DNA from: an uncultured bacterium
GTDB taxonomy: Bacteria; Desulfobacterota; Desulfobacteria; Desulfobacterales; JAHEIW01
Direction: 5' to 3'
DNA: 31,080 bases
NCBI GenBank assembly: GCA_965370395.1
Contig: CBDUUO010000001.1
Location: forward strand, 1 to 31,080
A program made the translations under genes and the position numbers. Shown in pieces: positions 66-30,515 of the stretch. Position 1 is the first letter of the stretch. Each line of letters opens with the position of its first letter. The notes beneath the pieces were generated by a model. It had not been told where the DNA came from. It ran no database searches and was given only the letters and a program-made list of their open reading frames with translations.

Positions 66-497
66 TCAGGCCGCCTTGTTTTTCGATATCCGAATCGGAT
101 TGGGGCCCAACTCTTTTATTTTTTCAGTGATTTCGGTCGCATATTGCGCAAAGCGCGGTCCTTCGCTGGACGACAGATTGTACATTTGGGCCCGTTCGCC
201 GCCAACACCGATCGTCTCCAATATCTTCTGGGCCTGCTCTACCCGCCTGCGTGCCCTTAAATTGCCGGAGTTAAAATGACATTCACCTTCCAGGCATCCA
301 ATGACGGCCACGCCGTCAGCACCTTTTTCAAATGCCCGCATGATATGAATCACATCCACTTTTCCGGTGCATGGAACCCTTACGATCTTGACGTTTGTCG
401 GATATTGCAATCGCATCGAACCTGCCAGGTCCGCAGCCGTGTACCCTCAGAAATTACAGCAAAATGCGATAATAACCGGTTCAAAATTTTCAGCCAT
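66..497 (-). CDS. mvhD: MvhD/FlpD-type [2Fe-2S] hydrogenase delta subunit, selenoprotein (U17), 143 aa
   Basis: Reading upstream of the ORF-track start gives MAENFEPVIIAFCCNF-TGA-GYTAADLAGSMRLQYP, the canonical MvhD N-terminus. TGA at 447-449 is in frame. ATG at 497 has a GGAGG Shine-Dalgarno. Downstream motifs are VPCTGKV and GCLEGECHF. Confidence 0.95.
417..433 (-). promoter_or_regulatory. Putative bacterial SECIS hairpin of mvhD
   Basis: 13 nt after the UGA: CGGACCU-GGC-AGGUUCG, a 7-bp stem (one G-U) with a G-led loop 20 nt from the UGA. Confidence 0.7.
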
Positions 498-734: not shown

Positions 735-3700
735 TTAAAGGACACCTTCTAGTAGCGCATCCACCTTACAAATAATCTGATCATCCTCGTACCAGTTGAG
801 CTGAATCGCTTTGGCCGGACATTCCGCCGTACAGATGCCGCAGCCATGGCAGAGGGCCTCATCGATTTCACTGACGCCGTCCGCATTAATTCTGGGCACA
901 TCGTACGGGCAGGATCGCACACAGATCAAACAGGAGGCACACTTGTCGGCTTCAACCTGGGCGGTGACCGCCGATAGCGTTAATTGCGGCTGGGACAAAA
1001 ATGTCACCGCCCGCGAAGCGGCCGCATAGGCCTGTGCAATGCTTTCGGATATCAGTTTGGGGCTATGTGCGGTGCCGCACACAAAAATCCCTTCGGTGGC
1101 CATATCGACCGGCCGTAATTTCACGTGGGCTTCCATGAAATAGCCTTCCGGCGTGCGGGCCAGTTTCACAATGGATGACAGCTCCTCGGTATCTTCGGCT
1201 TCCATACCGGCACTGAGCACCAGCAAATCGGTACTGACCTTCAGCTTTCGATTGAGCACGTGGTCGGTAAACGTAACCTCAACACCGTCTTTTGCGGCTT
1301 CGGCCACCGGCGGATCTTCGGGATCAAACCGGAAAAAGAAAACCCCCTGGCGCCGGGCCTCGGTGTAATAGTCTTCCAGAAGGCCATAGGTGCGGATATC
1401 GCGGTACAGCACATAAATTTGGGCATCCGGATATTTTTCCTTGATATGCAGTGCGTTTTTAACGGCCGTCTGACAGCAGACCCGGGAGCAATTGGGATTC
1501 TCATCGTTGCGCGATCCGATGCACTGGATCATAACCACCTGCTTGGGCTCCTCGAGTTCGCCTTTTTGCATGCGGTCGGCCAGCTCGAGTTGCGTCATCA
1601 CGCGCGGGTCATCTCCGTACAGGTATTCCTGGGGGCGATACTCGTGAGCGCCGGTGGCCAGAATAACCACGCCATGCGTAATTTTGCGCTGCACCACATC
1701 CGGGCCCACCAGAATTTCGGTGGTGAAGTTGCCTTTAAAGCCGGAAAAACCGACGACCAGCGAATTGGTGATCACCTGAATCTTTTCATGGGAGGTGACC
1801 CAGGAAACCAGGTCAGCGAGGTATTCACCGATATCGGCGCCTTCAATGGTTGCGGTCAGTTGTTTGGCCAATCCGCCCAGCTCGGCCTCTTTTTCAATTA
1901 AAATCACCTCATAGCCCTGATCTGCCAGGCCCCGGGCGGCATTCATGCCGGCCACACCCCCGCCGATGACCAGGCCTTTTTGAATCACCGGGATTTTCTT
2001 TTCCTGCAGCGGATGCAGTGTTCCTGCACGGGCCACCGACATGCGCACCAGGTCTTTGGCTTTTCCGGAGGCCGTTTCTGCGGTTTCGGAGTGCACCCAG
2101 GAATCCTGGTTGCGAATGTTGGCCATCTCAAACAGGTATTTGTTTAATCCGCAGGACTCCATGGTGTCCTGGAAAATAGGTTCATGGGTTTTGGGGCTGC
2201 AGGCCGCTACCACCACCCGGTTGAGCTTGTGTTCTTTGATGATCTCTTTCATCTGGTCCTGGGAATCCTGGGAGCAGGTAAACAGATTCTCCTGGGCGTA
2301 GACGACGTTGGGCAGCGTTTTGGCATATTCGGTCACACCCTTGACATCCACCACACTGGAGATGTTCACCCCGCAATTACAGACAAATACCCCCACCCGG
2401 GCATCCTGGTCGCTCACATCAATTTGTTCCGGAACTTCCACACTGCGGGTCAGCGTGTTGCGCGCCGCTCCCAGACGCGCGCCGGCGGCACAGGCCGCCG
2501 CACTCGCTTCGGTAATGGAGCTGGGAATGTCTTTGGGTTCCTGAAACACGCCGCAGGCGTAAACGCCCGGGCGTGTGGTTTTGACCGGGGTAAAGGGGTG
2601 CGTAAGGGCAAATCGGGAATCGTTGAGTTCAACACCGAGCCGCTCGGCCAGCTGAACGGTAGACTCCGGCACCTGCAGGCCGACCGACAGCACGACCATA
2701 TCAAATTCTTCAATCTGTAACTGGCCGGCATCATCCATGTAGCGAATGCTCAAATTTCCGGTATCACCGATTTCATCGATTGAATGAATTCGCGATTTGA
2801 TAAACCGAATGCCGGCATCTTTGGCGCGGTTATAATATTTCTCGTAATCTTTGCCAAAGGTGCGGATATCCATATTGAAAACCACACAATCCAGATCTTC
2901 ATCGGCATGTTCTTTGGCAATCATGGAATCTTTAATGGCATACATGCAGCAAACCGACGAACAGTAACTATTGCCGCATTGGTTGGTATCTCTTGAGCCG
3001 ACGCATTGCAGCCAGGCGATCTTTTTTGGATCTTTGCCGTCTGAGGGCCGTTGCAGATGTCCCATGGTCGGGCCCGAGGCGGCCAGGATACGTTCAAATT
3101 CCAGGCTGGTCAGCACATTGGGGCTGGTTTTGTAATGATAGACGTTTTCAAGGGGGGAGGGGTCATAGGGCTCGCTGCCGGCCGTAATAATAACGGAGCC
3201 GACTTCAATTTCCTGAATTTGGGCTTGCTGACTGTGATCAATCGCATTGGCCAGACAGGCCGCCACGCACTGATAGCACTCGCAGCAGTAGCCGCAGTTC
3301 AGACAGCGGGCGGCTTCCGCCCGGCCTTCCTCTTCGGCATAACCCAGTTCCACTTCATTAAAATTGCCTTTGCGCTTATCAACGGCAAGTTCGGGCATCT
3401 TGGCGCGTTCCACAATGGGTTCGTCTTCCGCAACGGGACGGTAAACCGGGTTTTCATTTACAACCGGCTCACGGCCTTCAGCCATGTCGCGTTTTTCAAT
3501 ATAGCGCAAGATCGACTCCGCCGCCTCTTTGCCGGCACCGATGGCGCCGATAGCCACCCAGGGACCGGTCTGCAGGTCACCGCCGGCAAACACCCCCTCG
3601 TGTTCGGTCGCATAGGTGATGGAGTCGACTTCGGTCGTTCCCCAGCGGGTATAGGTTAGCCCGGTAATATCCTCCAGCGCAGAGAGATCCGGTCTCTGGC

Positions 3701-5165
3701 CGATGGCCGGGATCAGCTGATCGATTTCAATTTCATACTCGCTTCCCGGAATCGGTATGGGACGTTTACGGCCCGATGAGTCGGGTTCGCTGAGCTCCAT
3801 GCGAATACAGCGCAATCCGACCACCTTGCCATCCCGGGTTAAACTCTCCTGGGGTGCCGACAGATAGGTGATTTGAACGCCCTCATCTTCGGCGGCCTGG
3901 ATTTCTTCTTCCCAGGCTGGCATTTCATTGCGGCTGCGCCGGTAAACGATATTGACTTCGGCGGCTCCCAGCCGCACAGCCGCGCGGGCCACATCGATGG
4001 CAACGTTTCCCCCGCCGATAATCGCCACCTTCTTGCCGGTGGCGGCTTTGCCGGTCAGATTCACTTCTTTGAGAAAATCAACGCCCTGACGAACGCCGCT
4101 GGACTTTTCGCCGGGGATGCCCAGTTCAATACCCTGGTGCGCGCCGATCGCCAGATAAACGGCCTTGTAACCGTCATCCAGCAGGCCGTCGATGGTGACG
4201 TCGCTGCCCAGCGCCGTATTGGTCTTGAGTTCCACACCCAGGTTGGTAATGACTTCGATTTCCCGGTCTAAAATCTCGCGCGGCAGGCGGTGGGCGGGAA
4301 TACCGACCCGGAGCATGCCGCCCGGTTCGGGCAGAGATTCAAATATGGTGGATAAAATGCCTTTTTTGGCCAGGTGGTAGGCACAGGAAAGCCCGGCCGG
4401 ACCGGAGCCGATAATGGCGACCTTTTCCTTTTTGAGCGGGGCACATTTAATTTCCACCTTGCGGGGATCAAACTTATCGGCTGCCAGGCGCTTTAAGTCC
4501 CGGATCGCCACCGGTTGTTCCACTTCGCAACGGCGGCAGGCATCTTCACACCCGTGGGGGCAGATGCGCCCCAGCACACCGGGAAGCGGCAGGTCTTCCA
4601 TAATGATTTCCAGGGCTTCCTTATACTTGCCCACTTTGACCATCTGCACATAGCCCTGCACATTCAAGCCACCCGGACACGCCAACCGGCACGGGGCCTT
4701 GTCTGCCTTCTGAATGGCATAGGCGCCGGGTATGGCCTGGGCGTATTGCTTGAAAGCGGCCTTTTTGGTTGCCAGGCCTTCGTCATATTCGCTCGACAGA
4801 TCTACCGGACAGACCGTGGTACACTCACCACAGCTGGTACATTTGGAAAGGTCAATATAGCGCGGGTTTTGACGAATGCGGGCTTTAAAATCCCCCGGTT
4901 CGCCTTCAAGTTCTAAAAGTTCGCTGTTGGTTAAAAGCTCAATGTTTAAATGCCGGCCGACCTCGACCAGTTTAGGTGAGATGATTCACATCGCACAGTC
5001 GTTGGTGGGAAACGTCTTATCGAGCTGAGACATCAGTCCGCCGATGGCAGATGACTTTTCGACCAGATGAACCAGGTAACCGGAATTGGCCAGATCCAGA
5101 GAGGCCTGCATCCCGGCAATTCCGCCGCCGACAACCATTACAGATCCATGGACTTTGTCCGTCAT
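735..5165 (-). CDS. hdrL: HdrL-type heterodisulfide reductase A-like flavoprotein (HdrA modules plus a GltD/NfnB-like NAD(P)H module), selenoprotein (U60), 1476 aa
   Basis: ATG 5165 with AAGGAG SD. MTDKVHGSVMVVGGGIAGMQASLDLA...LDKTFPTNDCAM-TGA-IISPKLVEVGRH continues in frame (TGA 4986-4988) into the 1316-aa ORF. Motifs: CTSCGECTTVCP, CPHGCEDACRR, GSGPAG, GGGNVA..YRR, CSSVCC, VFVCNCG, VVVAACSP, GGGVAG, CSRVCC and two C-terminal CxxCxxCxxxCP. Confidence 0.93.
4953..4970 (-). promoter_or_regulatory. Putative bacterial SECIS hairpin of hdrL
   Basis: 15 nt after the UGA: CUGGUCG-AGGU-CGGCCGG, a 7-bp stem (two G-U) with an AGGU loop 22 nt from the UGA. Confidence 0.65.
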
Positions 5166-5507: not shown

Positions 5508-7085
5508 ATGCCAGAACAACAGCGTTCAATCATTAACATCGGTCTGGTGGGCGGCGGGGACTTTTGCAAGGAAATCCTTGAAAAAACAACCGCCGTTTAT
5601 GAAGAGGCGGAAATGGTGGCGCCCATAATAGCGGTCGCCGATCCGGATCCTGAAAGTCCCGGCCGGAAACTCGCCAGCAAGCTCGGCCTGTTGACGTTTG
5701 ACGACTACAAGCAACTTTATGACCCAAGATACAGCATTCACCTGATTATTATCCTGACCCCGCAGTCGCAAATTTTTGAAAATATTTTAGATACCCGCCC
5801 CTCCCGCATCAGAATCCTTACTTACCAGGTGTTTCGCATGTTCTGGAAAGCCATCGGTCAGGAAGAACAAAAATTGCGGGAACGAACCAAAGAAATGGAG
5901 ACCATCCTAAACGGTATCGATGACTTTATTCTGGTGATTACCCCGGACATGGAAATTCTGGAGGCCAATGCATCTTTTCTAAACAAAATAGGATACAGCC
6001 ACGATAATGTGATCGGCAAAAAATGCCATGAAATCTACTTCAACCTGGCAGAGCAGTGTAAACCGGAAGAAATAGACTGTCCGTTGCAAGAAGTGGTTCG
6101 CAATAAACGACCCGCAAGAAAAATTCAAACACGCGTGTTGCCCAACGGCGAAAACCGCTATTACGAGGTCAACATCTACCCCATCTGGGAAAAACACGGC
6201 AAGGTCTCAAAATTCATCCACATCAGCCGGGATATTACGCAACACAAAAGGGAAGAAGCAGAAATTACCCGTCGCCTGGAACAAATGGTCGAAGAGCGAA
6301 CCCGGCAATTAAAGGAAACTCACAAGAAACTGCTCCACCAGGACAAGATGGCTTCGTTGGGCAAACTTTCCGCTTCAGTGGTCCATGAAATCAACAACCC
6401 CATCGCCGGCATCCTGAATTTGATTATGCTGATGGAACGCATCGTTGAAGAAGATACCATCGGCACCAAGGAAATCGATCAATTCAGCCGGTACCTGGCG
6501 CTAATGGAAACCGAAACGCGGCGCACCAGCCGGATTGTATCCAATCTTTTGGCCTTCTCGCGTCAATCCAAAATGGAGCTCAAACTAATCAGCCTGAATC
6601 GGCTGATTGAACAGACACTGTTTTTAAACTCCAATCTGCTCAAAATAGATGGGGTAAAAGTGGAAACCGATCTTGACCCGGACCTGCCGGATATGGTCGG
6701 CTCTGAGGACCAGCTGCAGCAGGTGTTCATGAACCTGGTTTCGAATGCCGCGGAAGCCATGGAATCCAAAGACGGCGGTCGTCTGCGCATTGAAACCCGG
6801 CACTCGTTGCGCGACGATAAACTGCTGGTCGCTTTTAAAGACACCGGCATCGGCATCCCGGAAGCAAATTTATCGAAGCTTTTTGAACCGTTTTTTACCA
6901 CCAAAAAGAAAGGCAAAGGCGTGGGGCTGGGCCTTTCGGTGGCCTATGGCATCATCCAGGAACACGGCGGTTCCATCTATGTAAAATCCAAGGTGGAAAA
7001 AGGCACAACGTTTAACGTCAGGTTTCCTTTAAAACCGGCCTCAGACAAACTTGACCCGCATGGAGGTTTCAGTGAGCAATATTAA
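5508..7085 (+). CDS. Cytoplasmic sensor histidine kinase: N-terminal Rossmann-like (Gfo/Idh/MocA-like) domain, PAS, HisKA, HATPase_c
   Basis: INIGLVGGGDFC...IAVADPD...HLIIILTP N-terminus. PAS with GKKCH..C..CP. H-box VVHEINNPIAGI, N-box NLVSNAAEAM, DTGIGI, FFTTK, GVGLGL. No obvious TM helix. Confidence 0.9.
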   Translation: MPEQQRSIINIGLVGGGDFCKEILEKTTAVYEEAEMVAPIIAVADPDPESPGRKLASKLGLLTFDDYKQLYDPRYSIHLIIILTPQSQIFENILDTRPSRIRILTYQVFRMFWKAIGQEEQKLRERTKEMETILNGIDDFILVITPDMEILEANASFLNKIGYSHDNVIGKKCHEIYFNLAEQCKPEEIDCPLQEVVRNKRPARKIQTRVLPNGENRYYEVNIYPIWEKHGKVSKFIHISRDITQHKREEAEITRRLEQMVEERTRQLKETHKKLLHQDKMASLGKLSASVVHEINNPIAGILNLIMLMERIVEEDTIGTKEIDQFSRYLALMETETRRTSRIVSNLLAFSRQSKMELKLISLNRLIEQTLFLNSNLLKIDGVKVETDLDPDLPDMVGSEDQLQQVFMNLVSNAAEAMESKDGGRLRIETRHSLRDDKLLVAFKDTGIGIPEANLSKLFEPFFTTKKKGKGVGLGLSVAYGIIQEHGGSIYVKSKVEKGTTFNVRFPLKPASDKLDPHGGFSEQY

Positions 7086-8409
7086 GATTCTGATTGTGGA
7101 TGATGAATTGATCATGCGCGAATCTCTAGCCGGCTGGCTGGAACGTGACGGACATACCGTGCAGACCGCCGCCAGCGGCGAAGAGGCTTTAGCGAAAATA
7201 AAAGAAACTCAGTTTAACATTTTCCTGGTGGATATCAAAATGGAGGGCATGAGCGGTCTGGACGTTTTGCGCAGCGTCAAAGAAAGCGACCCCGATGCTG
7301 AAGTCGTCATGATCACTGCCTACGGCTCCATTCCATCGGCCATCGAGGCCATGAAAGACGGCGCCTATGACTACATGCTCAAGCCGTTTGATCCCAATGA
7401 ACTGGGGGTGTTGATCGAAAAAATTATCCGCTACCAGGAACAGGCGCGAGAAAATATATATCTAAAGGAGCAATACAAGGAACGCACCCGTTTCGAGAGT
7501 ATGATCGGTCAGTCCAGACCCATGCAGGAAATATTTGACCTCATTTGCGACGTGGCCCCCATGGATTCAACCGTGCTGATCACCGGTGAGACCGGCACCG
7601 GGAAAGGTCTGGCCGCCAAGGCCATTCACACCAACAGTTCCCGTCGGGAAGGACCCTTTGTGACCGTCAACTGTGGCTCCATTCCGGAGCATCTGATGGA
7701 AAGTGAATTATTCGGCCATCAGAAAGGCGCGTTCACCGATGCCAAAGAAACCAAAAAAGGCCGTCTGGAAATGACCCACGGCGGCACCTTGTTTTTGGAC
7801 GAGATCGGTGAAATCAGCATGCGGATGCAAATTGATCTATTGCGGGTGCTGGAAGATCGCGTGTTTTACCGCGTGGGGGGTACCCAGCCCATTGAACCCG
7901 ATTTCAGGGTCATTGCCGCCACCAATCGAAATCTTGAAGCAGCCATCAAAGCGGGCGCATTTCGTGAAGACTTATTTTACCGCTTAAACGTCATTTCATT
8001 TATAATGCCCCCTTTAAATCAACGCAAGGAAGACATTCCGCTACTGGCAGAGCATTTTCTTTATCGTTTTTCCCAGGAGACCAACAAACCGACTGATAAA
8101 ATCAGTCGCGAAGCCATGGACGAAATGATGCTATATGACTGGCCGGGGAATATTCGGGAACTGGAAAATGCTATCGAACGTGCAGTTGTTGTGGGCAAGC
8201 AACGCGAAATTCTACCCGAAGATCTGCCGATTTTCTGCCATGAACCCGCACTGGCAACAAGAGCCAATTCTCTTAAAGAAGTGGAAAAGGCCCATATTCA
8301 GCAAGTGCTCATCGAAAATCAAGGGAACATTGCCAAAAGCGCGAAAATCCTGGGAATTGATCGTTCCACCCTCTATAGCAAAATCAAACGCTATAATATT
8401 GACAAATAA
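7072..8409 (+). CDS. Sigma-54-dependent response regulator (NtrC family: REC, AAA+, HTH)
   Basis: GTG 7072 after a GGAGG SD (preferred over 7051). ILIVDDE, VDIKMEG, GETGTGK, ESELFGH, GAFTDA, LFLDEIGE, WPGNIRELEN and C-terminal LGIDRSTLYSK. Confidence 0.93.
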   Translation: MSNIKILIVDDELIMRESLAGWLERDGHTVQTAASGEEALAKIKETQFNIFLVDIKMEGMSGLDVLRSVKESDPDAEVVMITAYGSIPSAIEAMKDGAYDYMLKPFDPNELGVLIEKIIRYQEQARENIYLKEQYKERTRFESMIGQSRPMQEIFDLICDVAPMDSTVLITGETGTGKGLAAKAIHTNSSRREGPFVTVNCGSIPEHLMESELFGHQKGAFTDAKETKKGRLEMTHGGTLFLDEIGEISMRMQIDLLRVLEDRVFYRVGGTQPIEPDFRVIAATNRNLEAAIKAGAFREDLFYRLNVISFIMPPLNQRKEDIPLLAEHFLYRFSQETNKPTDKISREAMDEMMLYDWPGNIRELENAIERAVVVGKQREILPEDLPIFCHEPALATRANSLKEVEKAHIQQVLIENQGNIAKSAKILGIDRSTLYSKIKRYNIDK

Positions 8410-8410
8410 C

Positions 8411-8968
8411 TTGACGCCTCAACCCGCAAATAGAATCATCATCTCACCCATCGGAGACTTTACACCCGATTTATTGGACCCGATCAGAGACGAGATAAAA
8501 CGGATTTACGGATATCCAACAGAAGTCCTGCCCCTTCTGGATGACCTTGAGTTTGCGTTTCATCCCAATCGAAATCAATATCATTCCACCCCTGTTTTGG
8601 AACAATTAGCGCTTAAAGCACCTGCCGACGCTATAAAGGTGCTGGCCCTGGTTCAGGTGGATCTGTTCATCCCGATTTTAACCCATGTTTACGGAGAGGC
8701 CCAGCTTGGCGGTATGGCCTGCATTGTGTCCACCATTCGGCTCAATGAGGGCCACAGCGCCTTAAGCACTCAGGAACCGTTTTTCAGTCGCATTGTCAAG
8801 GAGGCCATCCACGAACTGGGCCATACCTTTAAATTGCGCCATTGCCGGGAACATACCTGCCTGATGCATTACTGCCGCAATGAGAGCGATGTGGATCGCA
8901 AATCGGATCAACTGTGCCGCTATTGCAAGGTTCTACTGGACGATGAGATAAAAAGGCTGGTGAAATAA
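8411..8968 (+). CDS. Archaemetzincin-family (peptidase M54-like) zinc metalloprotease
   Basis: HELGHTFKLRH-C-x4-C-x-M...CRYC and DLFIPILTHVYGEAQL. Start placed at TTG 8411, just after the regulator stop. The start is uncertain because the frame is open from 8135 inside the regulator gene. Confidence 0.85.
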   Translation: MTPQPANRIIISPIGDFTPDLLDPIRDEIKRIYGYPTEVLPLLDDLEFAFHPNRNQYHSTPVLEQLALKAPADAIKVLALVQVDLFIPILTHVYGEAQLGGMACIVSTIRLNEGHSALSTQEPFFSRIVKEAIHELGHTFKLRHCREHTCLMHYCRNESDVDRKSDQLCRYCKVLLDDEIKRLVK

Positions 8969-9010
8969 GTTCTCACCAGCCAATAAGGAAGATGGTTGTC
9001 CAAAGAGAAG

Positions 9011-9937
9011 CTAGGATCTCAAAAACACCCGGGTAATTTGTTGCCAGCCGATCTGGGGCATATGCCCGAAAATGTCATTACTCAGATAGCCGCCGTCGGT
9101 GGCCAGCGGCCCGGCGGTTTCCTCGATTACCTGGTAGAGACGATCAACCTCTGCATCGATAAATTCACCGGCCTGAGCACCGATCATCAAGCTTTTAAGG
9201 TCTTGGCGAAGGTTGGAGCAGTGCAGCCGCAAAATCCATCCTTCACTGTATGGATCTTCATCGGCCCGGCTGCCGCGTTCGCGCAACTCCGGATTAATAT
9301 CGGTTACCACCCCGCTGACCGGTGAAAGCAGTCTGGCATTGTTTCCCTCGCGATCTAAGGCGATATCGGGCCGATCCTGTTCCATCTGTTTGCCCATCAA
9401 AGGTGCTTGAATTTGATCCAGCGGTCCCAGCAGGCGCATGGCAAAGTCATCCAAGCCGACTCGAACCGTCGAACCTTCCTCGATTTTTACCCAGGTATGT
9501 CCCGGATGCAGGTAAAATCCATGAGGGATTTTAAAACCCTTGATATCCAGGACATCCACCGGCTGAACCACGGCGTGCACGGCAAACTGATCACTGAAAT
9601 ATTGATCGAATTCGCAATTGCCGCACTGGTAGTCACGGGTGCAGGCGCGAAACTCAATGTGGCCGATCATATGATGCAAACAGGGCTGTTTCCATACCGG
9701 CAACTCCCGTAATTTGTCCTTCCAGAAAACAATGCGTCCACGCTTTCCTCTCGGGATCTTGACGTTTTCTTTGAGATGCAGGTTCTCGGAGGCAACACGC
9801 TGCATGGCCCTGTCATAGGCACAGGCCGCGCACTGGAAGTCAATCCAACAAAACTTTTTAGGAACCACGCCCGCCTGCATCCAGATACAAGGATGCTCAT
9901 TATTGGCAGCTTGATTTCTTGCTTGCTTCGAGTTCAT
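9011..9937 (-). CDS. GcvH-like fold protein B without lipoyl Lys, with two N-terminal Cys4 motifs, 308 aa
   Basis: VRVGLDDFA..LLG, LLSPVSG, DPYSEGW form the H-protein signature. G occupies the lipoyl-K position (DREGNNARLLSPV). AAGGA SD. Confidence 0.85.
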   Translation of the reverse strand: MNSKQARNQAANNEHPCIWMQAGVVPKKFCWIDFQCAACAYDRAMQRVASENLHLKENVKIPRGKRGRIVFWKDKLRELPVWKQPCLHHMIGHIEFRACTRDYQCGNCEFDQYFSDQFAVHAVVQPVDVLDIKGFKIPHGFYLHPGHTWVKIEEGSTVRVGLDDFAMRLLGPLDQIQAPLMGKQMEQDRPDIALDREGNNARLLSPVSGVVTDINPELRERGSRADEDPYSEGWILRLHCSNLRQDLKSLMIGAQAGEFIDAEVDRLYQVIEETAGPLATDGGYLSNDIFGHMPQIGWQQITRVFLRS

Positions 9938-10011
9938 AGTGAGTCCTTGGTGCCCCAGTTAATAGTTATTCGTTATTTGTTAATAGAAAAGGGCTAATAA
10001 CGAATAACGAA

Positions 10012-11010
10012 CTAGGTTTTCAGAAACTTTTGGGTTAAATTCTTCCAGCCCAGATCCGGAAGATTCCCGTAAATGTCATCAGCCAGATAACCGCCATCGG
10101 CCGCCAGGGGACCGGCAATTTCCTCGATCATGGTTTCCAGATGGTTGACTTCCTCGTTTATCCAGCTCAGGCCGTCCTGATCCACCATCAATTTTTTCAT
10201 GGTGCCTTTAATATCCGGCGTCCGAACCATAAAAAGCCACCCGTCTCCGTAAGGTTCATTATTGGCCAGTTTCGGATTTTCCCTGACCTTCGAATTCACT
10301 TCCATGATGACGCCATCTACCGGCGAAAGTACATCGGCCAGGTTATCTTTACGCTTCAGCCCCCAGCCCGCTTTGCTCTGATCCAATTCCTTACCGATCA
10401 ACGGCAGATCGAGAGCATCGGCCTGGCCCAGCACTTTCAGCGCAAAGTCATCCAATCCCACCCGAATATAACCGCCGCTTTCGATTCTGGCCCAGGCATG
10501 TCCATTATGGAAATAGTATCCCATGGGGACATCGAAACCCTTAACCTGCTGTATTTCACTGGGGAATGCTTTGGCTTTTGTGGTCCAGACATCTTCAAAA
10601 TACTGATCAAAGTCACATTTGCCGCATTCATAATCATACGCACACATCCGCTTTTCAATGCGGTCGGTAAGGCTGTGGCGGCAGGCCCGATCCAGATCCG
10701 GTCGTCTCTTCATGGCTGCCTGCCAGCTGATCTGTTTGCCTTTGGCGACTTTCTGATCCATGGCATGATCGTATTTACAGCGGGTGCAATCATAATAATT
10801 GTCACAATTTTTGAATTTTACCACCCCGGCCTGCATCCAAAGACAGGGAGTCGCTGCTTTGGCTTTCTTGTCCGGTTTGACCAGCCAGACCTGGCCGCCG
10901 AGAACAGATTCAATCTCTTGCTGCGCTTTGCCGTCACCAGCTTTGCCTTTTTGGTAAGTCGATCCGAATCCGACCTGGCTCCTCTGTGCCTTTTTCTTCT
11001 TTTCAGCCAT
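10012..11010 (-). CDS. GcvH-like fold protein A without lipoyl Lys, with two N-terminal Cys4 motifs, 332 aa
   Basis: IRVGLDDFA..VLG, VLSPVDG, EPYGDGW. D occupies the lipoyl-K position (KRKDNLADVLSPV). Paralog of 9011..9937. AAGGAG SD. Confidence 0.85.
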   Translation of the reverse strand: MAEKKKKAQRSQVGFGSTYQKGKAGDGKAQQEIESVLGGQVWLVKPDKKAKAATPCLWMQAGVVKFKNCDNYYDCTRCKYDHAMDQKVAKGKQISWQAAMKRRPDLDRACRHSLTDRIEKRMCAYDYECGKCDFDQYFEDVWTTKAKAFPSEIQQVKGFDVPMGYYFHNGHAWARIESGGYIRVGLDDFALKVLGQADALDLPLIGKELDQSKAGWGLKRKDNLADVLSPVDGVIMEVNSKVRENPKLANNEPYGDGWLFMVRTPDIKGTMKKLMVDQDGLSWINEEVNHLETMIEEIAGPLAADGGYLADDIYGNLPDLGWKNLTQKFLKT

Positions 11011-11059
11011 TTCCCTCGCTCCTTTTCTAAAATAAATTTTATTCTTGTTGCCTGATTAT

Positions 11060-11075
11060 AGCAAGGTATATGCCA
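11060..11075 (-). promoter_or_regulatory. Sigma-54 (-24/-12) promoter of the GcvH-like pair
   Basis: Minus strand TGGCAT-ATACC-TTGCT has GG-N10-GC spacing, one mismatch to TGGCAC-N5-TTGCW, and lies 50 nt upstream of ATG 11010. Confidence 0.85.
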
Positions 11076-11174
11076 ACGAAATCCATTCCGACTAGAATCA
11101 ATATAACAGCCTGAAATTGAATAAAATTTAATATTTAATAAATACAAAAGATTTAGATCAGCTGAATCCAGTTG

Positions 11175-11303
11175 TGTAGGGATTTTCTACATTTTAAGAA
11201 ATCAGATAAACTGGTTTTTTATAATATTGCATGAAATTTAACTTATTTTCAATTAATTACCACTATGTTGGATTTTCCACCAATGACTTTGTAATTTCCA
11301 CCA
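11175..11303. promoter_or_regulatory. Candidate upstream activator sites for a sigma-54 EBP
   Basis: Palindrome TGTAG-N7-CTACA (11175-11191), a related TGTTG-N7-CACCA (11266-11282), and TTTCCACCA repeated 21 bp apart (11274, 11295). These lie 100-230 bp upstream of the -24, across an AT-rich tract. Confidence 0.55.
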
Positions 11304-11481
11304 CTATCTTTCTTCGAACCCCTGTTTTTCATTTTGTTTACGATCAATTAGGGTAGAAAAACTGGGAGTATTTTGAATTTTAGTATTTGAAATCCTGTTT
11401 ATTTCCTGATATGAGCTTCTGTTCTATTGCCAGATAACCTGCTACCAATAATAATTTGAAAATCTGGAAAGGAGAGAAAAA

Positions 11482-11952
11482 ATGAATTTTGAGGACATAG
11501 AGGCGATAATTGATTTTGCGATTGAAAAGGAACGGGAAGCTGCAGCGTTCTATGAAAAAATAAGCAACGATGAGGAAGACTTTTCAGGCTCAAAACAAAT
11601 GTTTGAGGAATTTGCCGTTGAAGAGCAGAAACATGAGAAAATACTGCTGGATTTTAAAACCAAGGGAATATCCAAAAGTCTGGAAGAATATCAGCTAAAA
11701 TGGATCACCGATATAAAGCGCGGCGATTATTTAGTTGACCTGGAGTATGAAAAGGGCATGCCGTACAATGAAATTCTGCTGCTGGCCATAAAGCGCGAAG
11801 AGAAAGCGCTGCGACTGTATAACGACTTCCTGGAAAAAGCCGATACGGATGAGAGTAAAAAGCTGTTTAAGGTGCTTTGTCAGGAAGAAGCCAAACACAA
11901 ATTGGCTCTGGAAACTATCTATGATGACTATATGGCTAAAATGGGAGACTAG
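11482..11952 (+). CDS. Rubrerythrin/ferritin-like diiron protein (no rubredoxin domain)
   Basis: Duplicated E-x-E..FY..EExxH pattern (EKEREAAAFY..EEQKH; KREEKALRLY..EEAKH). GGAG SD. Confidence 0.85.
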   Translation: MNFEDIEAIIDFAIEKEREAAAFYEKISNDEEDFSGSKQMFEEFAVEEQKHEKILLDFKTKGISKSLEEYQLKWITDIKRGDYLVDLEYEKGMPYNEILLLAIKREEKALRLYNDFLEKADTDESKKLFKVLCQEEAKHKLALETIYDDYMAKMGD

Positions 11953-15635: not shown

Positions 15636-16067
15636 CTATTTTATGATTTTAGTGATTTTGGGCTGGTATGCATTCTTTTTGGCCATTTTATTGGCCCGGG
15701 CTTTGATGATAAACAGCGCGGTGAAAAAGAAGGCAAATCCCAACAGGACAGATAACGCAGAGGGACTAAATCCTATAAGGGGGGCCAGCACCTGCCCGAG
15801 TGCAGCGCCAACGATCAGCAGGATAATGGGAAAGACGTAAATCAAAAAGGTGGCTTTTAACAATGCGGCGGTCTCAAACCTCAAAACGATCCGATCCCCG
15901 ACTCTGGCGCCGGCCGAATTTACGGCCTTAACCTCCATATCCCGGCCGCCTCCCATGGTGTGGCAGGATCCCTTTGCGGTGCAGCCTTCACAGTCGCTGC
16001 TCCGAACGGTTTTTACCCAGGCGGCCCCAGAATCGGTCCGCAGCACGATCCCTTGTTCAGTAGCCAA
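15636..16067 (-). CDS. rseC: RseC/MucC-family membrane protein (SoxR-reducing system RseC-like)
   Basis: CEGCTAKGSC motif, VGDRIV, two hydrophobic TM segments. TTG start with GAGG SD. Confidence 0.85.
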   Translation of the reverse strand: MATEQGIVLRTDSGAAWVKTVRSSDCEGCTAKGSCHTMGGGRDMEVKAVNSAGARVGDRIVLRFETAALLKATFLIYVFPIILLIVGAALGQVLAPLIGFSPSALSVLLGFAFFFTALFIIKARANKMAKKNAYQPKITKIIK

Positions 16068-16187: not shown

Positions 16188-18290
16188 TTACCCGGAAGCT
16201 TCAGACGATTCTTCCTTTTGATCAGCCGGCGCCGTGTCTGTGTGCTCATAGCAGATCAATCCGCATTGCAGGCATCTTGAAGCTTCTTTCTGCGCCATAT
16301 CTGCTGAGAAGCCCCTTTCGATCTCACCGCATATCGCCAGCTCTTTGCCGCTGCAAATCGGCATGATCTGGCGCTGACTCGCCTGCACGTTTTCCACATG
16401 ATAGACATTTTGCAGGACCGATTGCGGTGCGATCACATGCTCCGTTAAATTAGGGGATAGCCCATGCATCACCTCATGAATAGATGCAGCTGCCCGACGG
16501 CCGGCACCGATTGCTTTGATGGCTGCGCTGTAATCCGCAAGCACATCACCTTCGGCAAACAATCCCACCTCATCTTTGAAGGCCGGTTGTTTGTAAGGTT
16601 GAATACCTTCCCAGTGCATAGACAAATTCGGTGGTGATTCCACGCCTTCGGCGTCTTCAGATTCAGCACCTTCCGGTTTTGGCCTGACAAAAACCAATTC
16701 AGGAAATCGGCCGGCGGCGAACACCAGTGTCTGAGCCGGTATGACTGTCCTTTTATAGGTATCGGCTTCAATATATTCCACCTGTTCGAGCCGATCAGTC
16801 TCTCCCAAAAGGCGGTTTATGGCTGCATGATAAATCACATTCATGCCTGTCAGACCGCGTTTTTGCACCTCCTCATCCGAAACGGGACTGTTTTCCCAGC
16901 TCTCTCGGAACAAAACGGTGATGGTCGTAGCTCCCAGTCCCTTGCAAACTTTAGCTGCATCAAGCGCCAGCTTGCCCCCGCCGGCAATCACAACATCGGA
17001 CTCAATCGATAGGGCCCCCGTCTGCCGGGCTCCGAATCGAATGAGATCCACCAGCATATAGGTTCCGGGAATCGATGATTCGATATCAACGGTCGCCCCG
17101 CGTACCAGACGGCTGTCCCAGCCTCCGGAAGCCAAAAAAACCGCATCAAATCCTTCCTGAATCAGTGATTTTATGGTGAAATCCCTGCCGAGGGTCTTTT
17201 GAGTTTCGACCTTAACGCCCATTTCAATGATGCCTTCAATATCCCAATCCAGTATCTCCTCGGGCAGCCTATCCTTTGAAATTGCGCTCCTGAGCAACCC
17301 GCCCAGTTTGGGGGTGGCTTCAAATACGGTTGTATCGTGTCCCAGGCGGGCCGTAAAAAACGCGGTTGACAAACCTTGCACGCCGCCGCCGACAACCGCA
17401 ATTTTGCGGCCGGTATCCGGAGCCTTATAGGGTAGAATGCGGTTGCCGCTTTCTTTTTCATAATCTGCAGCGTAGCGCTTCAAAAAATTTATGGCAACCG
17501 GCTCATCAATATAATTTCGGCGGCACTCCAGTTCACATGGCCGAGGGCAAATCCGGCCAATCACAGCTGGAAAGGGATTGCGTTCCTTGATGACCTGAAC
17601 GGCGCGATGATTGTTTCCCAGCGAAATTTGACGAATGTATTCCCGAATATTAATCCCTGCCGGGCATGCCCGCTGGCAGGGGGTCGTGCATTCTTCAGTG
17701 GTGTACTCCCGCATAATCCTTCGGGTAATCGATGACAGGTTAATAATATGCTTCGGGCACACCCGTTCGCAGGCTCCGCAGCCGGTACATTTATTTTCGC
17801 TAACCACCGGCAAACCTTGCGGCCCCATGGTAATCGCATCAAACGGACAGGCCCTGGCGCAAGTCCCCAGACCCAGGCATCCGATGGTGCATACCTTCAT
17901 GCCGCCACCCAGAAGTGCCACCGCCCGGCAGTCATCTAAACCATTATACACATATTTCGTATGCGCTTTCTGGACACCAAAATAACAGCCCGGCAAGGCG
18001 ATGTCCGGTTCAACCGCTTCGATTTTAACGCCCATAATGCTGGCAATGGCTTCGGCCACTTCCGGCCCGGCAGCCACACATGAGTTTGGTGCCGAAAGAC
18101 CGGCCACAACGGCCTCGGCATTGGCGCTGCAACCCGGCAGCCCGCAACCGCCTCAGTTGACACCGGGCAATTCTTCTTCAACTGCCAGGATTTTGGGGTC
18201 AACATATACGTAAAAAACTTTGGAGGCGATGGCCAAAATGATACTGATCATCAATCCCATGCCGCCCATTAATATGATTGCGTCAACCAT
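16188..18290 (-). CDS. RnfB-domain :: GltD/NfnB-like FAD oxidoreductase fusion, putative selenoprotein (U46), 700 aa
   Basis: ATG 18290 with GAGGT SD. TM helix MVDAIILMGGMGLMISIILAIASKVFYVYVDPK, then LPGVN-TGA-GGCGLPGC (the RnfB LPGxNCGxCGxPGC motif; TGA 18153-18155), CTIGCLGLGTC..CP, CTGCGACERVCP, CQRACPAG, CPRPCELECRR, GGGVQG and CLQCGLIC. Confidence 0.88.
18126..18141 (-). promoter_or_regulatory. Putative bacterial SECIS hairpin of the rnfB fusion
   Basis: 11 nt after the UGA: GCUGC-CGGGUU-GCAGC, a perfect 5-bp stem with the loop 16 nt from the UGA and G at loop position 2. Confidence 0.65.
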
Positions 18291-18323
18291 TAGAGTACCT
18301 CAGGAAATCAAATTTCAAGTGAT

Positions 18324-20111
18324 CTAAAATATGGCGTCGAATTTACACTTATTAAAACAGGTCATGCATTTGATGCACTTTTCCTTGTCAATAAAGGCAA
18401 CTTCTTTCTTTTTCCAGGTAATCGCTTCCACCGGACAGCTTCGGAAGCAAAGTCCGCATTTGGTACACATTTCCGGCTCCACCTCGAATTTTAAAAGCTC
18501 AATACAGCGTTTGGCTGGACATCGTTTTTCATAAACATGGGCTTCATATTCATCCTTAAAATACCGTAAGGTCGAAAGAACCGGATTGGGTCCGGTCTGA
18601 CCCAAACCACAAAGAGCCGCTTCTTTAATCGTGTCTGAAAGTTCCTCCAAGGTCTCAATATCTTCAGGTGTTCCCCGACCTTCGCAGATTTTTTCGAGCA
18701 GCTGTAAAAGACGCCGCGTGCCCTCTCGGCAGGGTGTGCACTTGCCGCAGGATTCGTCCTGGACAAAATCCATAAAAAACCGGGCCATATCGACCATGCA
18801 GGTATTTTCGTCCATCACGATGGCCCCGCCGGAACCCATAATGGCGCCCACTTTGGCAATTTCCTCATAGTCAATAGGAATATCCAGCTTTTCTTCGGGT
18901 ACGCAACCGCCCGAAGGCCCGCCAAGCTGAACGGCTTTAAATTTTTTCTTATTCGGGACCCCGCCGCCGATATCATAAATCATGGTTCTCAGGCTGGTGC
19001 CCATCGGCACTTCAACCAATCCGATGTTGTTGACATCTCCGGAAAGCGCAAACACTTTTGTTCCCTTGCTGCTTTCGGTACCGACACTGGCATACCATTT
19101 CCCGCCGTTCATGATAATCTGCGAAATGTTGGCCAGGGTTTCGACATTATTTAAAATGGTCGGTTTTTCCCATAAACCTTTGTGGGCCGGAAACGGCGGC
19201 CGCGGGCGCGGCATGCCGCGTTTGCCTTCAATCGATCTCATCAGTGCGGTCTCTTCGCCGCAAACGAACGCACCGGCGCCCTGGTAAATGTCAATGTCGA
19301 AGTCAAAGCCGGTTCCCAGGATATCTGTTCCTAGCAGCCCGTACTCTCGGGCCTGTTTAATGGCAATTCCCAATCTTCTGATGGCCAGCGGATATTCTGT
19401 TCGCGCGTAAATGTATCCCTGATGGGCATTGATCGCCCGGGCGGCAATCAGCATGCCTTCTAGAACAGCATGCGGATCAGCCTCCAGTATGCTCCGATCC
19501 ATGAAAGCACCCGGGTCGCCTTCGTCCGCATTGCACAAAACATATTTGATCTCGCCGGGACTCTTGCCGGCAAATTCCCATTTCAATCCGGTCGGAAAAC
19601 CGGCTCCGCCGCGCCCCCTTAAGCCCGACGTTTTTACCTCTGCGATGATCTGTTCCGGACTCATCTCCTGCAAGGCTTTGGCGGCTCCGAAATAACCGTC
19701 TCTGGCAATGTACTCATCGATGACCTCCGGATCGATGGCCCCCTTGTTGCGCATTGCCCAGAACACCTGGTGCTTGAAAAAGGGAATTTCGTTCATATTG
19801 GGAATGGTTTCTTTAGAGGCCGGTTCGACGTAGAATAGTTTTTTTACAGGACGGCCTTTGAGAAAATGCTCCTCGACGAGGTGAGGAACGTCTTTGGTTC
19901 TCAGTTTCTGGTAAAAGATACCTTCGGGCTGCACCAGCATAACCGGCCCGACAGCGCAAAAGCCATTGCAGCCGGTTTCAATAATTTTAATTTCATCAGA
20001 AAGCTCTCGGCGTTCCAGCTCTTTTTGAAGCGCTTCCTGAAACACGCCACTCCCACTTGCTTGACAGCCTGTACCACCGCACAACATCAACTGAGTTCTT
20101 ACCTTATTCAT
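18324..20111 (-). CDS. NuoF/HydB-like NADH-binding FMN Fe-S subunit, 595 aa
   Basis: N-terminal CGGTGC..GCNGFC [2Fe-2S], [57 protein letters not shown] and two C-terminal [4Fe-4S]. ATG 20111 has an AGGAG SD. Confidence 0.92.
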
Positions 20112-20131
20112 GCTGGACTCCTGCATGAGAT

Positions 20132-20280
20132 GATTGACTATTTTCGATTGACGATTGAATATTTAAGGATTTCAGCCTAATTGAAAATTTACTATTGAAT
20201 GGATAATGTTTAACCGAAAGCTTTAAAAATAAAATGATAGAATTCCTCCAATCATCAATTATCAATAGTCAATATTCAAT
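20132..20280. repeat. Heptamer-periodic imperfect inverted repeat between nuoE-like and nuoF-like genes
   Basis: GATTGAC-TATTTTC-GATTGAC-GATTGAA-TATTTAA-GGA ... TCC-AATCATC-AATTATC-AATAGTC-AATATTC-AAT. Confidence 0.85.
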
Positions 20281-20346
20281 TAACCCTATTGCCATGATCT
20301 AATATGTTTTTAATCTCAGATAATTTCATGTTGGTTAAAACGTTCT

Positions 20347-20841
20347 CTATTCGTACTTATTAAGGGTTTCAATGACTTTGTCGGCTTTGACAGCACCGTA
20401 AGTATCCTGATCCACCACCACAACAGGCGCCAGTCCGCAGGCCCCCAGACATCGAACGGTTTCCAGAGAAAAACGCCGATCTTCGGTGGTGCATCCTTCT
20501 TTCACCTGGTATTCGTTGCCGATACGGCTGATCACTTCTTTAATGCCCTTCACATAGCAGGCGGTGCCCATGCATACCTTGATCAAATGCCGGCCTTTGG
20601 GTGTCAGGTAAAAAAGTGAATAAAAGGAAGCAATTCCGAAAACCTCGCTGCGGGAAAGATTGAGGCCGTCGCTGATATAGTCAATCAACTCAACCGGCAG
20701 CCAGCCGACGACATCCTGGCATTCCCGTAAAACACCAATAATCGAGCCTGGAATGTCTTTGTTGTCGTCAATGATCTCATCAATCTTAGACCACATTTCA
20801 TTTGTAATATCGGAATGTTCAGGATAGGCGTCAAGTGCCAT
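20347..20841 (-). CDS. NuoE/HydC-like [2Fe-2S] subunit
   Basis: VCMGTACYVKG and VRCLGACGLAPV. GAGG SD. Confidence 0.92.
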   Translation of the reverse strand: MALDAYPEHSDITNEMWSKIDEIIDDNKDIPGSIIGVLRECQDVVGWLPVELIDYISDGLNLSRSEVFGIASFYSLFYLTPKGRHLIKVCMGTACYVKGIKEVISRIGNEYQVKEGCTTEDRRFSLETVRCLGACGLAPVVVVDQDTYGAVKADKVIETLNKYE

Positions 20842-27011: not shown

Positions 27012-27365
27012 ATGAGACTCTCAGAAATTATAGATACGCTGGATGCGACACTCCTGATTGGAGAAGATAACCTGGACCAGGACATTACGACTTGCGGCGC
27101 CAGTGATTTGATGAGCGATATCCTGGCCGCAGTTTGTGAAGGCTGTATCCTATTAACCGGTTTGGCAACGGTCCAGGTGATACGGACAGCCATCATAGCC
27201 GGGGTCGGGGCGGTGGTATTTGTCAGGGGCAAAAAGCCTCCCCGGGAGGTGGTCGAAATGGCCGGAGCCCAGGGGCTACCGTTAATATCGAGCCCCTATT
27301 CCATGTTTGTCTCCTGCGGCAGACTGCACGCCTGTAATATTACAGGGCTTGATGGACAACGATAA
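27012..27365 (+). CDS. Stand-alone DRTGG-domain protein 1
   Basis: GASDLMSDILA..LLTGL..QVIRTA...AVVFVRGKKP pattern. Confidence 0.8.
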   Translation: MRLSEIIDTLDATLLIGEDNLDQDITTCGASDLMSDILAAVCEGCILLTGLATVQVIRTAIIAGVGAVVFVRGKKPPREVVEMAGAQGLPLISSPYSMFVSCGRLHACNITGLDGQR

Positions 27366-27408
27366 CCGATCATTCACAATCTGACTCTACAGTAAATTTC
27401 AAGCGACG

Positions 27409-27849
27409 ATGTCTAGATTCAAAAAAAGCTTTCATATAAAAGGTAGAGATTTTATCCGCGCCGGAGAGGCCGCGATCAACGTTCAAAATCTTCTCAAGTC
27501 GATGGATTTTGATTCCCGCTTGGTTCGGCGAATCGCCATCTGCGGCTATGAAAGCGAAATGAATGTGGTCATGCACGGCGGCGATGGTTCCTTGAGCATT
27601 GAGGTCGACACGGACAAGCTGATTTTAGAAATATCAGATGATGGCCCCGGCATCGAAGATATTGAACTGGCCATGCAGACCGGTTACTCGACAGCCAACG
27701 ACGATCACCGTGAAATGGGTTTCGGAGCCGGTATGGGCCTGCCGAATATGAAAAAAAATTCAGACCAGATCCAGATTGAGTCAAAAAAAGACCAGGGAAC
27801 CGTGGTTCGAATGTTTTTTTTTCTGCCTGAGGGAGTGAAAACAGATTGA
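27409..27849 (+). CDS. RsbT/RsbW-like anti-sigma Ser/Thr kinase (GHKL)
   Basis: YESEMNVVMHG, DDGPGI, GYST, GFGAGMGLPNMKK, GT.V. Confidence 0.85.
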   Translation: MSRFKKSFHIKGRDFIRAGEAAINVQNLLKSMDFDSRLVRRIAICGYESEMNVVMHGGDGSLSIEVDTDKLILEISDDGPGIEDIELAMQTGYSTANDDHREMGFGAGMGLPNMKKNSDQIQIESKKDQGTVVRMFFFLPEGVKTD

Positions 27850-29156: not shown

Positions 29157-29209
29157 TCCGCTTTATTGACAAACCTATTTGGACAGCCGGCTGGAAAGGA
29201 TATTGACAG

Positions 29210-29548
29210 TTGTTGGTAAAAGATCTGGTGGAAAAATTCGACCTATCAGTAGCTGCCGGGAAAAATGGACTGGATCGCGAGATCATGGACGGTTACTGCG
29301 GTGATTTGTTAAGCGAAATTATGGGCAACGCGCCGGCAGGGTGTGCCTGGATGACCGTTCAGGGGCATCAGAACATTGTCGCGGTGGCCGTGCTGCGTGA
29401 AATGGCCGCTATCATTATCACCGGTGGTCAAAAGCCGGATGAGGAAACCATCCAGAAGGCGGATCAGGAAGGCATTCCCATTTTATTGTGGCCAAACTCA
29501 TCCTTTAGCCTGGCCGGCCGCATTTTTAGCGCCGGCGTCGGAACTTAG
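29210..29548 (+). CDS. Stand-alone DRTGG-domain protein 2
   Basis: GYCGDLLSEIMG..AWMTVQGHQNIVAVA..AAIIITGG. TTG start after GGAAAGGA. Confidence 0.82.
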   Translation: MLVKDLVEKFDLSVAAGKNGLDREIMDGYCGDLLSEIMGNAPAGCAWMTVQGHQNIVAVAVLREMAAIIITGGQKPDEETIQKADQEGIPILLWPNSSFSLAGRIFSAGVGT

Positions 29549-29735
29549 TTCGCTTCGCTCACAATTGGAATGATGGAAAGATGGAATACTGGAATATTGG
29601 GTCTGTAATCCAAACACTGAAGTTATGCGTTTTTGACCATTATTCCATTATGCCATTATTCCATGTAGGCGGCATAAAACCAGTGTCGTTAAAAGCTACA
29701 CACTTTCAATATGTTATATAATTTCCGAGACGTTG
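29544..29735. repeat. Octamer-periodic inverted repeat with head and tail sequences
   Basis: GGAATGAT-GGAAAGAT-GGAATACT-GGAATATT-GGGTC (29567-29603) / GACC-ATTATTCC-ATTATGCC-ATTATTCC (29635-29662). Head CTTAGTTCGCTTCGCTCACAATT. The right boundary is approximate. Confidence 0.8.
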
Positions 29736-29751
29736 ATTAAGGAATCAACCG

Positions 29752-30498: not shown

Positions 30499-30515
30499 TA
30501 CAAGATTTTGTGTAA

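Follow-up and report, generated by a model that had tools for sequence, protein, structure and literature searches.

A conserved module linking a sigma-54 two-component switch, an archaemetzincin and lysine-less GcvH-like proteins in Desulfobacterales

The barrel fold of the glycine cleavage H-protein, GcvH (PF01597, TIGR00527), has been put to other uses: in the sulfur-oxidising sHdr systems LbpA represents an H-protein fold recruited to heterodisulfide-reductase-like enzymes, and it keeps the lipoyl lysine and is accompanied by lipoate-maturation and sHdr genes. Dedicated metalloproteases are likewise familiar in redox biology, the [NiFe]-hydrogenase maturation endopeptidases HybD and HycI each trimming a few residues off the C-terminus of a metalloprotein that belongs to a redox enzyme. 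Here we describe a gene module that invites comparison with both, carried on a stretch of 31,080 nucleotides (contig CBDUUO010000001.1 of assembly GCA_965370395.1, hereafter the window) from an uncultured bacterium of the Desulfobacterales. In it, genes for a sensor histidine kinase (HK), an NtrC-type sigma-54 activator or enhancer-binding protein (EBP) and an archaemetzincin (M54), all on the + strand, converge on two genes for GcvH-like proteins (paralogues a and b) on the - strand.

Several parts of this arrangement have described counterparts. Structures of archaemetzincins have been solved, substrate and role being not known (PMC3427221). HdrL, a fusion of HdrA with glutamate synthase encoded next to MvhD, the two often being selenoproteins, was described in Desulfobacterium autotrophicum (PMC2702500); for the HdrL/HdrA-MvhD enzymes of sulfate reducers the electron acceptor is not known (PMC2702500, PMC5947623). 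In Geobacter sulfurreducens BccR (GSU0598), an NtrC-type activator, governs the sigma-54 respiratory operon cbcBA at low redox potential, and that operon also carries uncharacterised "hypothetical" genes (bioRxiv 10.1101/2021.04.15.440034). Compared by published description only, BccR/cbcBA appears to be the nearest studied circuit, sharing with the window an NtrC-type activator beside a sigma-54 operon; unlike it, the window has no CbcBA, and M54 is not mentioned in the Geobacter paper. Literature searches returned no paper joining HdrL with GcvH or archaemetzincin with sigma-54, and none linking GcvH, NrfD or M54 with sigma-54 in the sense of this module. A preliminary description of the locus, made by a model from the DNA letters, had called the system undescribed, and we too found no published account of the gene set in the searchable literature. 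Its observations proved sound except for a statement on termination and one domain label that was not confirmed, and its interpretation is supported in part, as set out below.

Gene content and conservation of the module

The features that define the module are as follows.

5508..7085, + strand: sensor histidine kinase (HK); PAS, HisKA and HATPase domains (Pfam); cytoplasmic, with an N-terminal domain without assignment
7072..8409, + strand: NtrC-type sigma-54 activator (EBP); REC, AAA+ and HTH_8 domains (Pfam); GTG start
8411..8968, + strand: archaemetzincin (M54), by Pfam and NCBIfam; TTG start; member of a module-specific clade
8955..8981, - strand: terminator-like hairpin and T-run ending the GcvH-like operon; -19.8 kcal/mol, z -3.9
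9011..9937, - strand: GcvH-like paralogue b of 308 aa, with a pair of Cys4 motifs, a GcvH barrel lacking the lipoyl Lys, and a DGG tail
9954..10016, - strand: A/U-rich hairpin between the GcvH-like genes; -19.7 kcal/mol, z -3.9
10012..11010, - strand: GcvH-like paralogue a of 332 aa, with a pair of Cys4 motifs, a GcvH barrel, and the tail loop A303-A304-D305-G306-G307
11060..11075, - strand: sigma-54 promoter (-24/-12), TGGCAT-N5-TTGCT; exact match, conserved
11175..11191, no strand assigned: candidate proximal enhancer, the palindrome TGTAG-N7-CTACA, lying upstream of the -24 element by about 100 nt
11266..11304, no strand assigned: candidate distal enhancer pair, comprising 11266-11282, with a single mismatch, and a second, weaker site near 11288-11304; orthologous promoters conserve the classes of site at 200-240 nt

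The regulators and the protease form a tight operon, as had been noted: a single nucleotide separates the EBP stop from the TTG of M54, a start common to many orthologues, and GGAGG stands 5 nt before the GTG at 7072, the most plausible start of EBP, from which the 14-nt overlap with the HK gene follows. The two convergent genes are paralogues of the GcvH fold, again as first described, with b scoring 68 and a 75 bits on PF01597, and they share 42% mutual identity. The absence of gcvP, gcvT, gcvL and lipoate ligase genes was confirmed among the scanned open reading frames (ORFs) of the window, which likewise hold no lipoate synthase or sHdr gene.

Comparison of neighbourhoods across genomes upheld the proposal of a distinct system, the module being conserved well beyond its source genome. 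Of 401 genomes sampled from the phylum, 110 carry the GcvH-like family and 153 carry M54; M54 is present in 100 of the 110 GcvH-like-positive genomes versus 53 of the 291 others, these counts coming from two tables compared by eye. When 20 loci were picked solely by a GcvH-like match, M54 adjoined the GcvH-like gene in 15, including loci whose proteins are 33-40% identical to those of the window. Gene order was counted in 80 Desulfobacterales loci bearing an orthologue of gene a: gene b follows in tandem in 78 of 78, and M54, EBP and HK are present in 37 of the 52 orthologous loci whose downstream flank extends for 6.5 kb or more. The regulators and HdrL, the latter encoded on the far side of HK in the window, seem to travel as a single unit. 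In roughly one in four orthologous loci (L088, L099, L102, L105, L106 and others) the GcvH-like pair occurs without HK-EBP-M54 within 10 kb, and also without HdrL; the closest relative (93% identical) is among the loci lacking HK-EBP-M54 within that distance of the pair.

Distant lineages have the same kinase, activator and M54 with two or three shorter GcvH-like genes, which bracket genes for an Fe-S protein bearing a twin-arginine translocation (Tat) signal (NrfC) and an NrfD-type membrane protein. Because the 20 short-form loci we inspected were picked for M54 and a GcvH-like gene on one contig, the presence of M54 in 20/20 is not evidence; what counts is their NrfC/NrfD content and the occurrence of HK and EBP in 18 of the 20. 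From the conserved gene content we conclude that the constant core consists of kinase, activator, M54 and GcvH-like protein, with a redox partner that varies, and that the window holds the Desulfobacterales version of a module that is widespread yet unstudied.

The GcvH-like proteins, the archaemetzincin and their modelled complex

Paralogue a, modelled with AlphaFold2 (predicted local distance difference test score, pLDDT, 81.8), matches the solved H-protein 1onl with a template modelling (TM) score of 0.91, a root-mean-square deviation of 1.7 A and an E-value of 1.3e-11 (Foldseek), and the window proteins have the GHxW, RVGxDDFA, SPVxG and PYxxGW motifs in common with GcvH. The likeness is one of barrel fold. 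The proteins pass the Pfam domain cut-off but fall below all NCBIfam GcvH cut-offs (TIGR00527, 74.6 and 59.1 bits versus 115.85; NF002270, 74.7 and 67.2 versus 117), that is, at best 75 bits against a required 116-117. The lipoyl lysine is indeed missing, as first observed: its column, in the V-E-S-V-K-A context of GcvH, is occupied by D in paralogue a but by G in b, and in 40 long forms aligned with the genome's canonical GcvH it is variable, holding G, E, D, N, K or P, with a virtually invariant Arg (39 of the 40) two residues earlier. Separate short GcvH genes with the lipoyl lysine are found elsewhere in the same genome. By lysine and by family score, these proteins are therefore neither GcvH nor, in the absence of a conserved lysine and of lipoate-maturation or sHdr genes among the scanned ORFs, LbpA; in contrast to GcvH they have no gcvPT nearby and add an N-terminal double Cys4 domain and a C-terminal tail of about 70 residues.

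The two C-x12-C-x5-C-x2-C motifs N-terminal to the barrel are invariant in all 38 of the long forms extracted, and the resulting eight-cysteine domain, which would be expected to bind metal, is specific to the family. Searches of AlphaFold DB clusters with this domain returned its own family only, besides two weak hits annotated as 2Fe-2S (E 0.1 and 1.2), and ESM Atlas features gave it no named family. The extreme N-terminus of paralogue a is disordered and Lys-rich. The tail carries an invariant GG (G306, G307), mostly after Asp, and a tail-only profile, run against 1.84 billion proteins, retrieved 1,583 clusters (50% identity). GG lies 18-38 residues from the C-terminus in 139 of the 150 best tail matches, preceded by D in 112 cases, by T in 14 and by S in eight. 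N-terminal parts vary across the family: some have a membrane helix, others one or two Cys4 motifs or a Cys-rich motif of a different kind. Clustering at 90% leaves more than 1,400 relatives; named ones derive mostly from metagenome-assembled genomes of uncultured Desulfobacterales, and the lysine-less genes commonly bear the wrong annotation, "glycine cleavage system protein H".

The M54 protein is, by motif and score, a true archaemetzincin in a clade of its own, with 64 bits on PF07998 (cut-off 24.4) and 145.1 on the NCBIfam archmetzin model NF033823 (cut-off 145). It shares with the archaemetzincins AmzA of M. kandleri and A. fulgidus (MEROPS M54; PMC3427221) the motifs HExxHx5HC, CX4CxM and CxxC. 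All three are kept in 85 distinct module-linked M54s, in which H134, E135, H138, H144, C145, C150, M152, C169 and C172 are invariant; in place of the Gly of HEXXHXXG, Desulfobacterales copies have Lys or Asn, and the window copy has K. In a maximum-likelihood tree 87 module-linked M54s split from 18 stand-alone copies with support of 100/97, the stand-alone set being drawn from 20 sampled in genomes without a GcvH-like match, of which 18 had no GcvH-like or activator gene nearby. The window protein thus differs from archaeal archaemetzincins in belonging to a separate clade always linked to GcvH-like genes, and in having a candidate natural partner from modelling. A second, weak M54-like match (G000:C44:11609-11827, locus L189) was seen on a different contig of the genome at 26 bits, barely above the Pfam cut-off.

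That partner is suggested by the one complex we predicted, of paralogue a with M54, each supplied as an alignment built in this analysis. The pair scored 0.65 by ipSAE (interaction prediction score from aligned errors), the best of three controls scoring 0.01; the mark applied to this score is one that 58 of 80 solved complexes attain, as do 2 of 110 mismatched pairs. Three runs agreed in 98% of contacts, with partner pLDDT at least 86. Tail residues 301-310 are placed antiparallel to the M54 edge strand 89-97, in contact with H134, E135, H138 and the wall that follows the Met-turn (154-157). Metzincins hold their substrates in just this orientation, antiparallel to the edge strand in the cleft. 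The tail loop is also the sole dip in pLDDT in the C-terminal half of the paralogue a monomer model, and five of the seven M54 positions that are conserved in module-linked copies but differ in stand-alone copies fall in the interface (P=0.001). If a bond is cut at all, the modelled contacts would put it around A304-G306. The model supports binding; it does not show it. For the earlier suggestion that the protease processes or removes a component, support comes from this model, in which the tail loop occupies the M54 cleft; co-occurrence is strong at the level of both genome and locus.

We also considered whether cleavage might free GG as a ThiS/MoaD-like C-terminus and do not favour it: the contacts place the likely bond at or before D305-G306, not after G307, and no E1-like gene lies nearby. 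The resemblance to HybD and HycI is a functional analogy only, protease fold and substrate being unrelated and the cleavage in the window a modelled one.

Probable sigma-54 control and the redox neighbourhood

The regulatory frame is that of an ordinary NtrC-type sigma-54 system, a HisKA/HATPase kinase paired with an activator of REC, sigma-54 AAA+ and HTH_8 domains (Pfam). Three PAS cysteines of HK (C173, C184 and C191; C-x10-C-x6-CPL, residues 173-193) are at least 90% conserved in 49 orthologues of 32-82% identity and may, to judge from this pattern, form a metal, Fe-S or thiol sensor site. The label "Rossmann" attached earlier to HK residues 1-125 found no Pfam or PDB sequence support; only a GxGGG...VxD pattern is conserved there. 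The sigma-54 contact loop of EBP (residues ~219-224) reads GAFTDA versus the usual GAFTGA.

The promoter at 11060-11075 was confirmed as the sole exact match to TGGCAY-N5-TTGCW in the window, and it lies 49 nt ahead of the start of gene a. Among 84 promoters of gene-a orthologues the element is found in 82 with at most one mismatch, and exactly in 71; no sigma-54 promoter was found for gene b itself. Upstream, the candidate enhancers that had been placed within 11160-11310 resolve into palindromes at 11175-11191 and 11266-11282. Over the 84 orthologous promoters, TGTwG-N7-CwACA palindromes cluster about 100-120 and 200-240 nt upstream of the sigma-54 element, at a density of 5.7 per kb upstream of promoters versus 0.31 per kb across whole loci. 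By sequence, the region therefore has both the GG-N10-GC element and the upstream activator sites of a target promoter, and the earlier suggestion that EBP induces the GcvH-like pair is strongly supported by comparison, with the promoter so widely kept and the palindromes at fixed distances. As the conserved neighbouring activator, EBP is the obvious candidate to bind the palindromes.

On termination the preliminary description was mistaken. It had reported no visible terminator between the converging transcripts; an 11-bp G+C-rich hairpin followed by a T-run occupies 8955-8981 (-), about 30 nt past the stop of gene b, with a folding z of -3.9, and overlaps the 3' end of the M54 gene. A second hairpin, at 9954-10016 (-), has a 13-bp perfect core and fills the 74-nt spacer between the GcvH-like genes, whose relative expression it could set.

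On either side of the module lie further genes, among them the following three.

66..497, - strand: MvhD (FlpD family), probably a selenoprotein; Pfam FlpD 138 bits; in-frame TGA at 447-449
735..5165, - strand: HdrL, HdrA-like plus NfnB/GltD-like domain, ~1476 aa (Pfam); in-frame TGA at 4986-4988; a frequent neighbour, not a shown target
11482..11952, + strand: rubrerythrin/ferritin-like gene, divergent; kept only by the closest relatives, outside the core

HdrL here combines HdrA-like and NAD(P)H-binding domains with MvhD as its neighbour. Its in-frame N-terminal extension, to an ATG at 5165, carries an FAD motif and TNDCAMU; in MvhD (ATG 495-497), reading the TGA as U gives the motif CCNFUGY. 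Both are probable selenoproteins, the in-frame TGA of each standing at a position of Cys or selenocysteine, and a simple ORF search cuts both short.

In five genomes the GcvH-like domain is itself part of a larger enzyme: a protein of about 1000 aa joins ferredoxin, MvhD and molybdopterin-binding-like domains and ends in a GcvH-like domain and tail, and an HdrA-like FAD domain or gene precedes it. Such fusions occur at L058:3136-6099, L060:5083-8151, L061:6050-9241 and L062:5607-8537; in the fusion proteins A or S stands before GG, and GG is missing in one copy. Together with gene adjacency, these sequences suggest a tie between the GcvH-like proteins and the Hdr/MvhD and NrfCD redox modules.

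Elsewhere in the window, NuoE- and NuoF-like genes and a GltD/NfnB-like Fe-S flavoprotein (16188-20841, -) probably encode an NAD(P)H-linked electron-bifurcating or ferredoxin-linked enzyme, and are preceded by a gene of the RseC/MucC family (15636-16067). A further cluster (27012-31073, +) of DRTGG, HATPase-like, [FeFe]-hydrogenase-like (Fe_hyd_lg_C and Fe-S motifs) and PHP genes resembles sensory-hydrogenase regulatory clusters.

Proposed mechanism, alternatives and implications

The best overall explanation, to which we assign a probability of roughly 55%, is that a kinase-EBP-sigma-54 switch controls a GcvH-like pair that has a dedicated M54 partner and a role at redox complexes. In this scheme the cytoplasmic PAS kinase, with its conserved cysteine triad, would phosphorylate the NtrC-type activator in response to a redox or metal signal; the activator would bind the three TGTwG-N7-CwACA sites, recognised by their conservation, and fire the sigma-54 promoter of the two-gene operon; and the operon would yield non-lipoylated proteins of the H-protein fold with a putative metal-binding domain of eight cysteines and the C-terminal tail. 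M54, as dedicated partner, is predicted to take the [D/T/S]GG loop, which lies some 25 residues before the C-terminus, into its catalytic cleft in substrate orientation, and would most likely cleave there, for maturation or for removal of the GcvH-like protein. The H-like proteins, whose biochemical function we infer, are probably cytoplasmic docking or electron-transfer accessory subunits of Hdr/MvhD- or NrfCD-type complexes, a role suggested by fusions and neighbourhood. The more specific proposition, that module-linked M54s cut the [D/T/S]GG loop of a new H-fold metalloprotein family and so gate its docking onto flavin-based Hdr/MvhD or quinone-linked NrfCD complexes, we advance tentatively, as a possibility on which we would not wager at even odds.

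Several observations weigh against this scheme. The M54-GcvH-like complex is a prediction, and in vitro the archaeal archaemetzincins showed no activity towards standard substrates (PMC3427221). Four genomes, 90-99% complete, have GcvH-like genes with no detectable M54, so cleavage cannot be a requirement in every case. The stretch of ~25 residues that follows GG is conserved and confidently packed (pLDDT ~95), which is unusual for a discarded propeptide and would fit a stable non-cleaving complex equally well. In the window M54 shares its transcript with the regulators, apart from the genes of its proposed substrate. T or S before GG pairs perfectly with Ala for Ser at interface position 59 of M54 (6 loci versus 80), yet all six loci form one clade and the covariation counts as a single event in the tree, for which reason we rejected it as independent evidence. 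The Cys domain modelled alone reached an AlphaFold2 pLDDT of only 69, and no chain among 48,161 in the PDB resembled it at Z of at least 2. HdrL, finally, is found in 11 of 24 loci with both flanks, under half, though always together with M54. The proposed control of HdrL-MvhD by the circuit found no support at the level of transcription, and sigma-54 or enhancer control of HdrL was discarded: the only match in the window has two mismatches and lies 252 nt upstream, and the HdrL-HK spacer has no conserved site of either kind in 19 loci. What stands of that proposal is a functional link to Hdr/MvhD, suggested by the fusion proteins.

The strongest alternative holds M54 to be a non-proteolytic partner of the kinase or activator, as CarG is of CarD in Myxococcus, and the GcvH-like proteins to be mere transcriptional output. 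We regard this as unlikely, at something like one chance in five. An archaemetzincin homologue acting inside a transcriptional regulator is on record, and the failure of the archaeal enzymes in vitro is in keeping with such a role (PMC3427221); M54 does sit within the regulator operon, in the order HK-EBP-M54 in the window and HK-M54-EBP in other lineages. Against this, the catalytic Glu of HExxH is invariant in the 85 M54 copies, whereas CarG has Gln, and the window M54 scores 92 on the NCBIfam model of non-proteolytic forms, for which the cut-off is 250. In several lineages (e.g. L040, L079) M54 travels with the GcvH-like genes, away from HK and EBP, and the complex model favours the GcvH-like tail, M54 and paralogue a being the pair modelled.

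Somewhat less probable still is a signalling role, in which the GcvH-like proteins, for example as redox- or metal-sensing adaptors, would feed back on the kinase or activator and would not be subunits of redox enzymes. Such a role would accord with a core of HK, EBP, M54 and GcvH-like protein that stays invariant while the redox partner switches among HdrL, NrfCD and fusions; yet distant lineages co-transcribe GcvH-like genes with structural NrfC/NrfD, some GcvH-like domains are fused to HdrA-MvhD enzymes and some forms are membrane-anchored beside NrfD. It is very improbable that these are ordinary or LbpA-like lipoate carriers using a shifted hairpin lysine, for although the barrel is a true H-protein fold and paralogue a has lysines at hairpin positions -1 and -3, no lysine column is conserved in the 40 long forms, paralogue b has none nearby, the window ORFs lack lipoate ligase/synthase, gcvPT and sHdr genes, and the genome's separate short GcvH genes do carry the lysine.

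On balance we favour the switch with its dedicated protease partner, and two elements of it are new and lend themselves to tests on recombinant proteins and short DNA probes: a residue-level prediction, which places the tail loop A303-G307 in the M54 cleft at H134, E135 and H138, and a defined regulatory DNA element, the sigma-54 promoter with its TGTwG-N7-CwACA sites. The abundance of the GcvH-like family makes it worth testing. The module offers one testable context for three orphans, the archaemetzincins, the lysine-less GcvH-like genes and the HdrL/HdrA-MvhD enzymes; should the proposed cleavage prove true, it would constitute a post-translational layer above a redox-sensing sigma-54 switch and would provide the first natural substrate for the M54 family.

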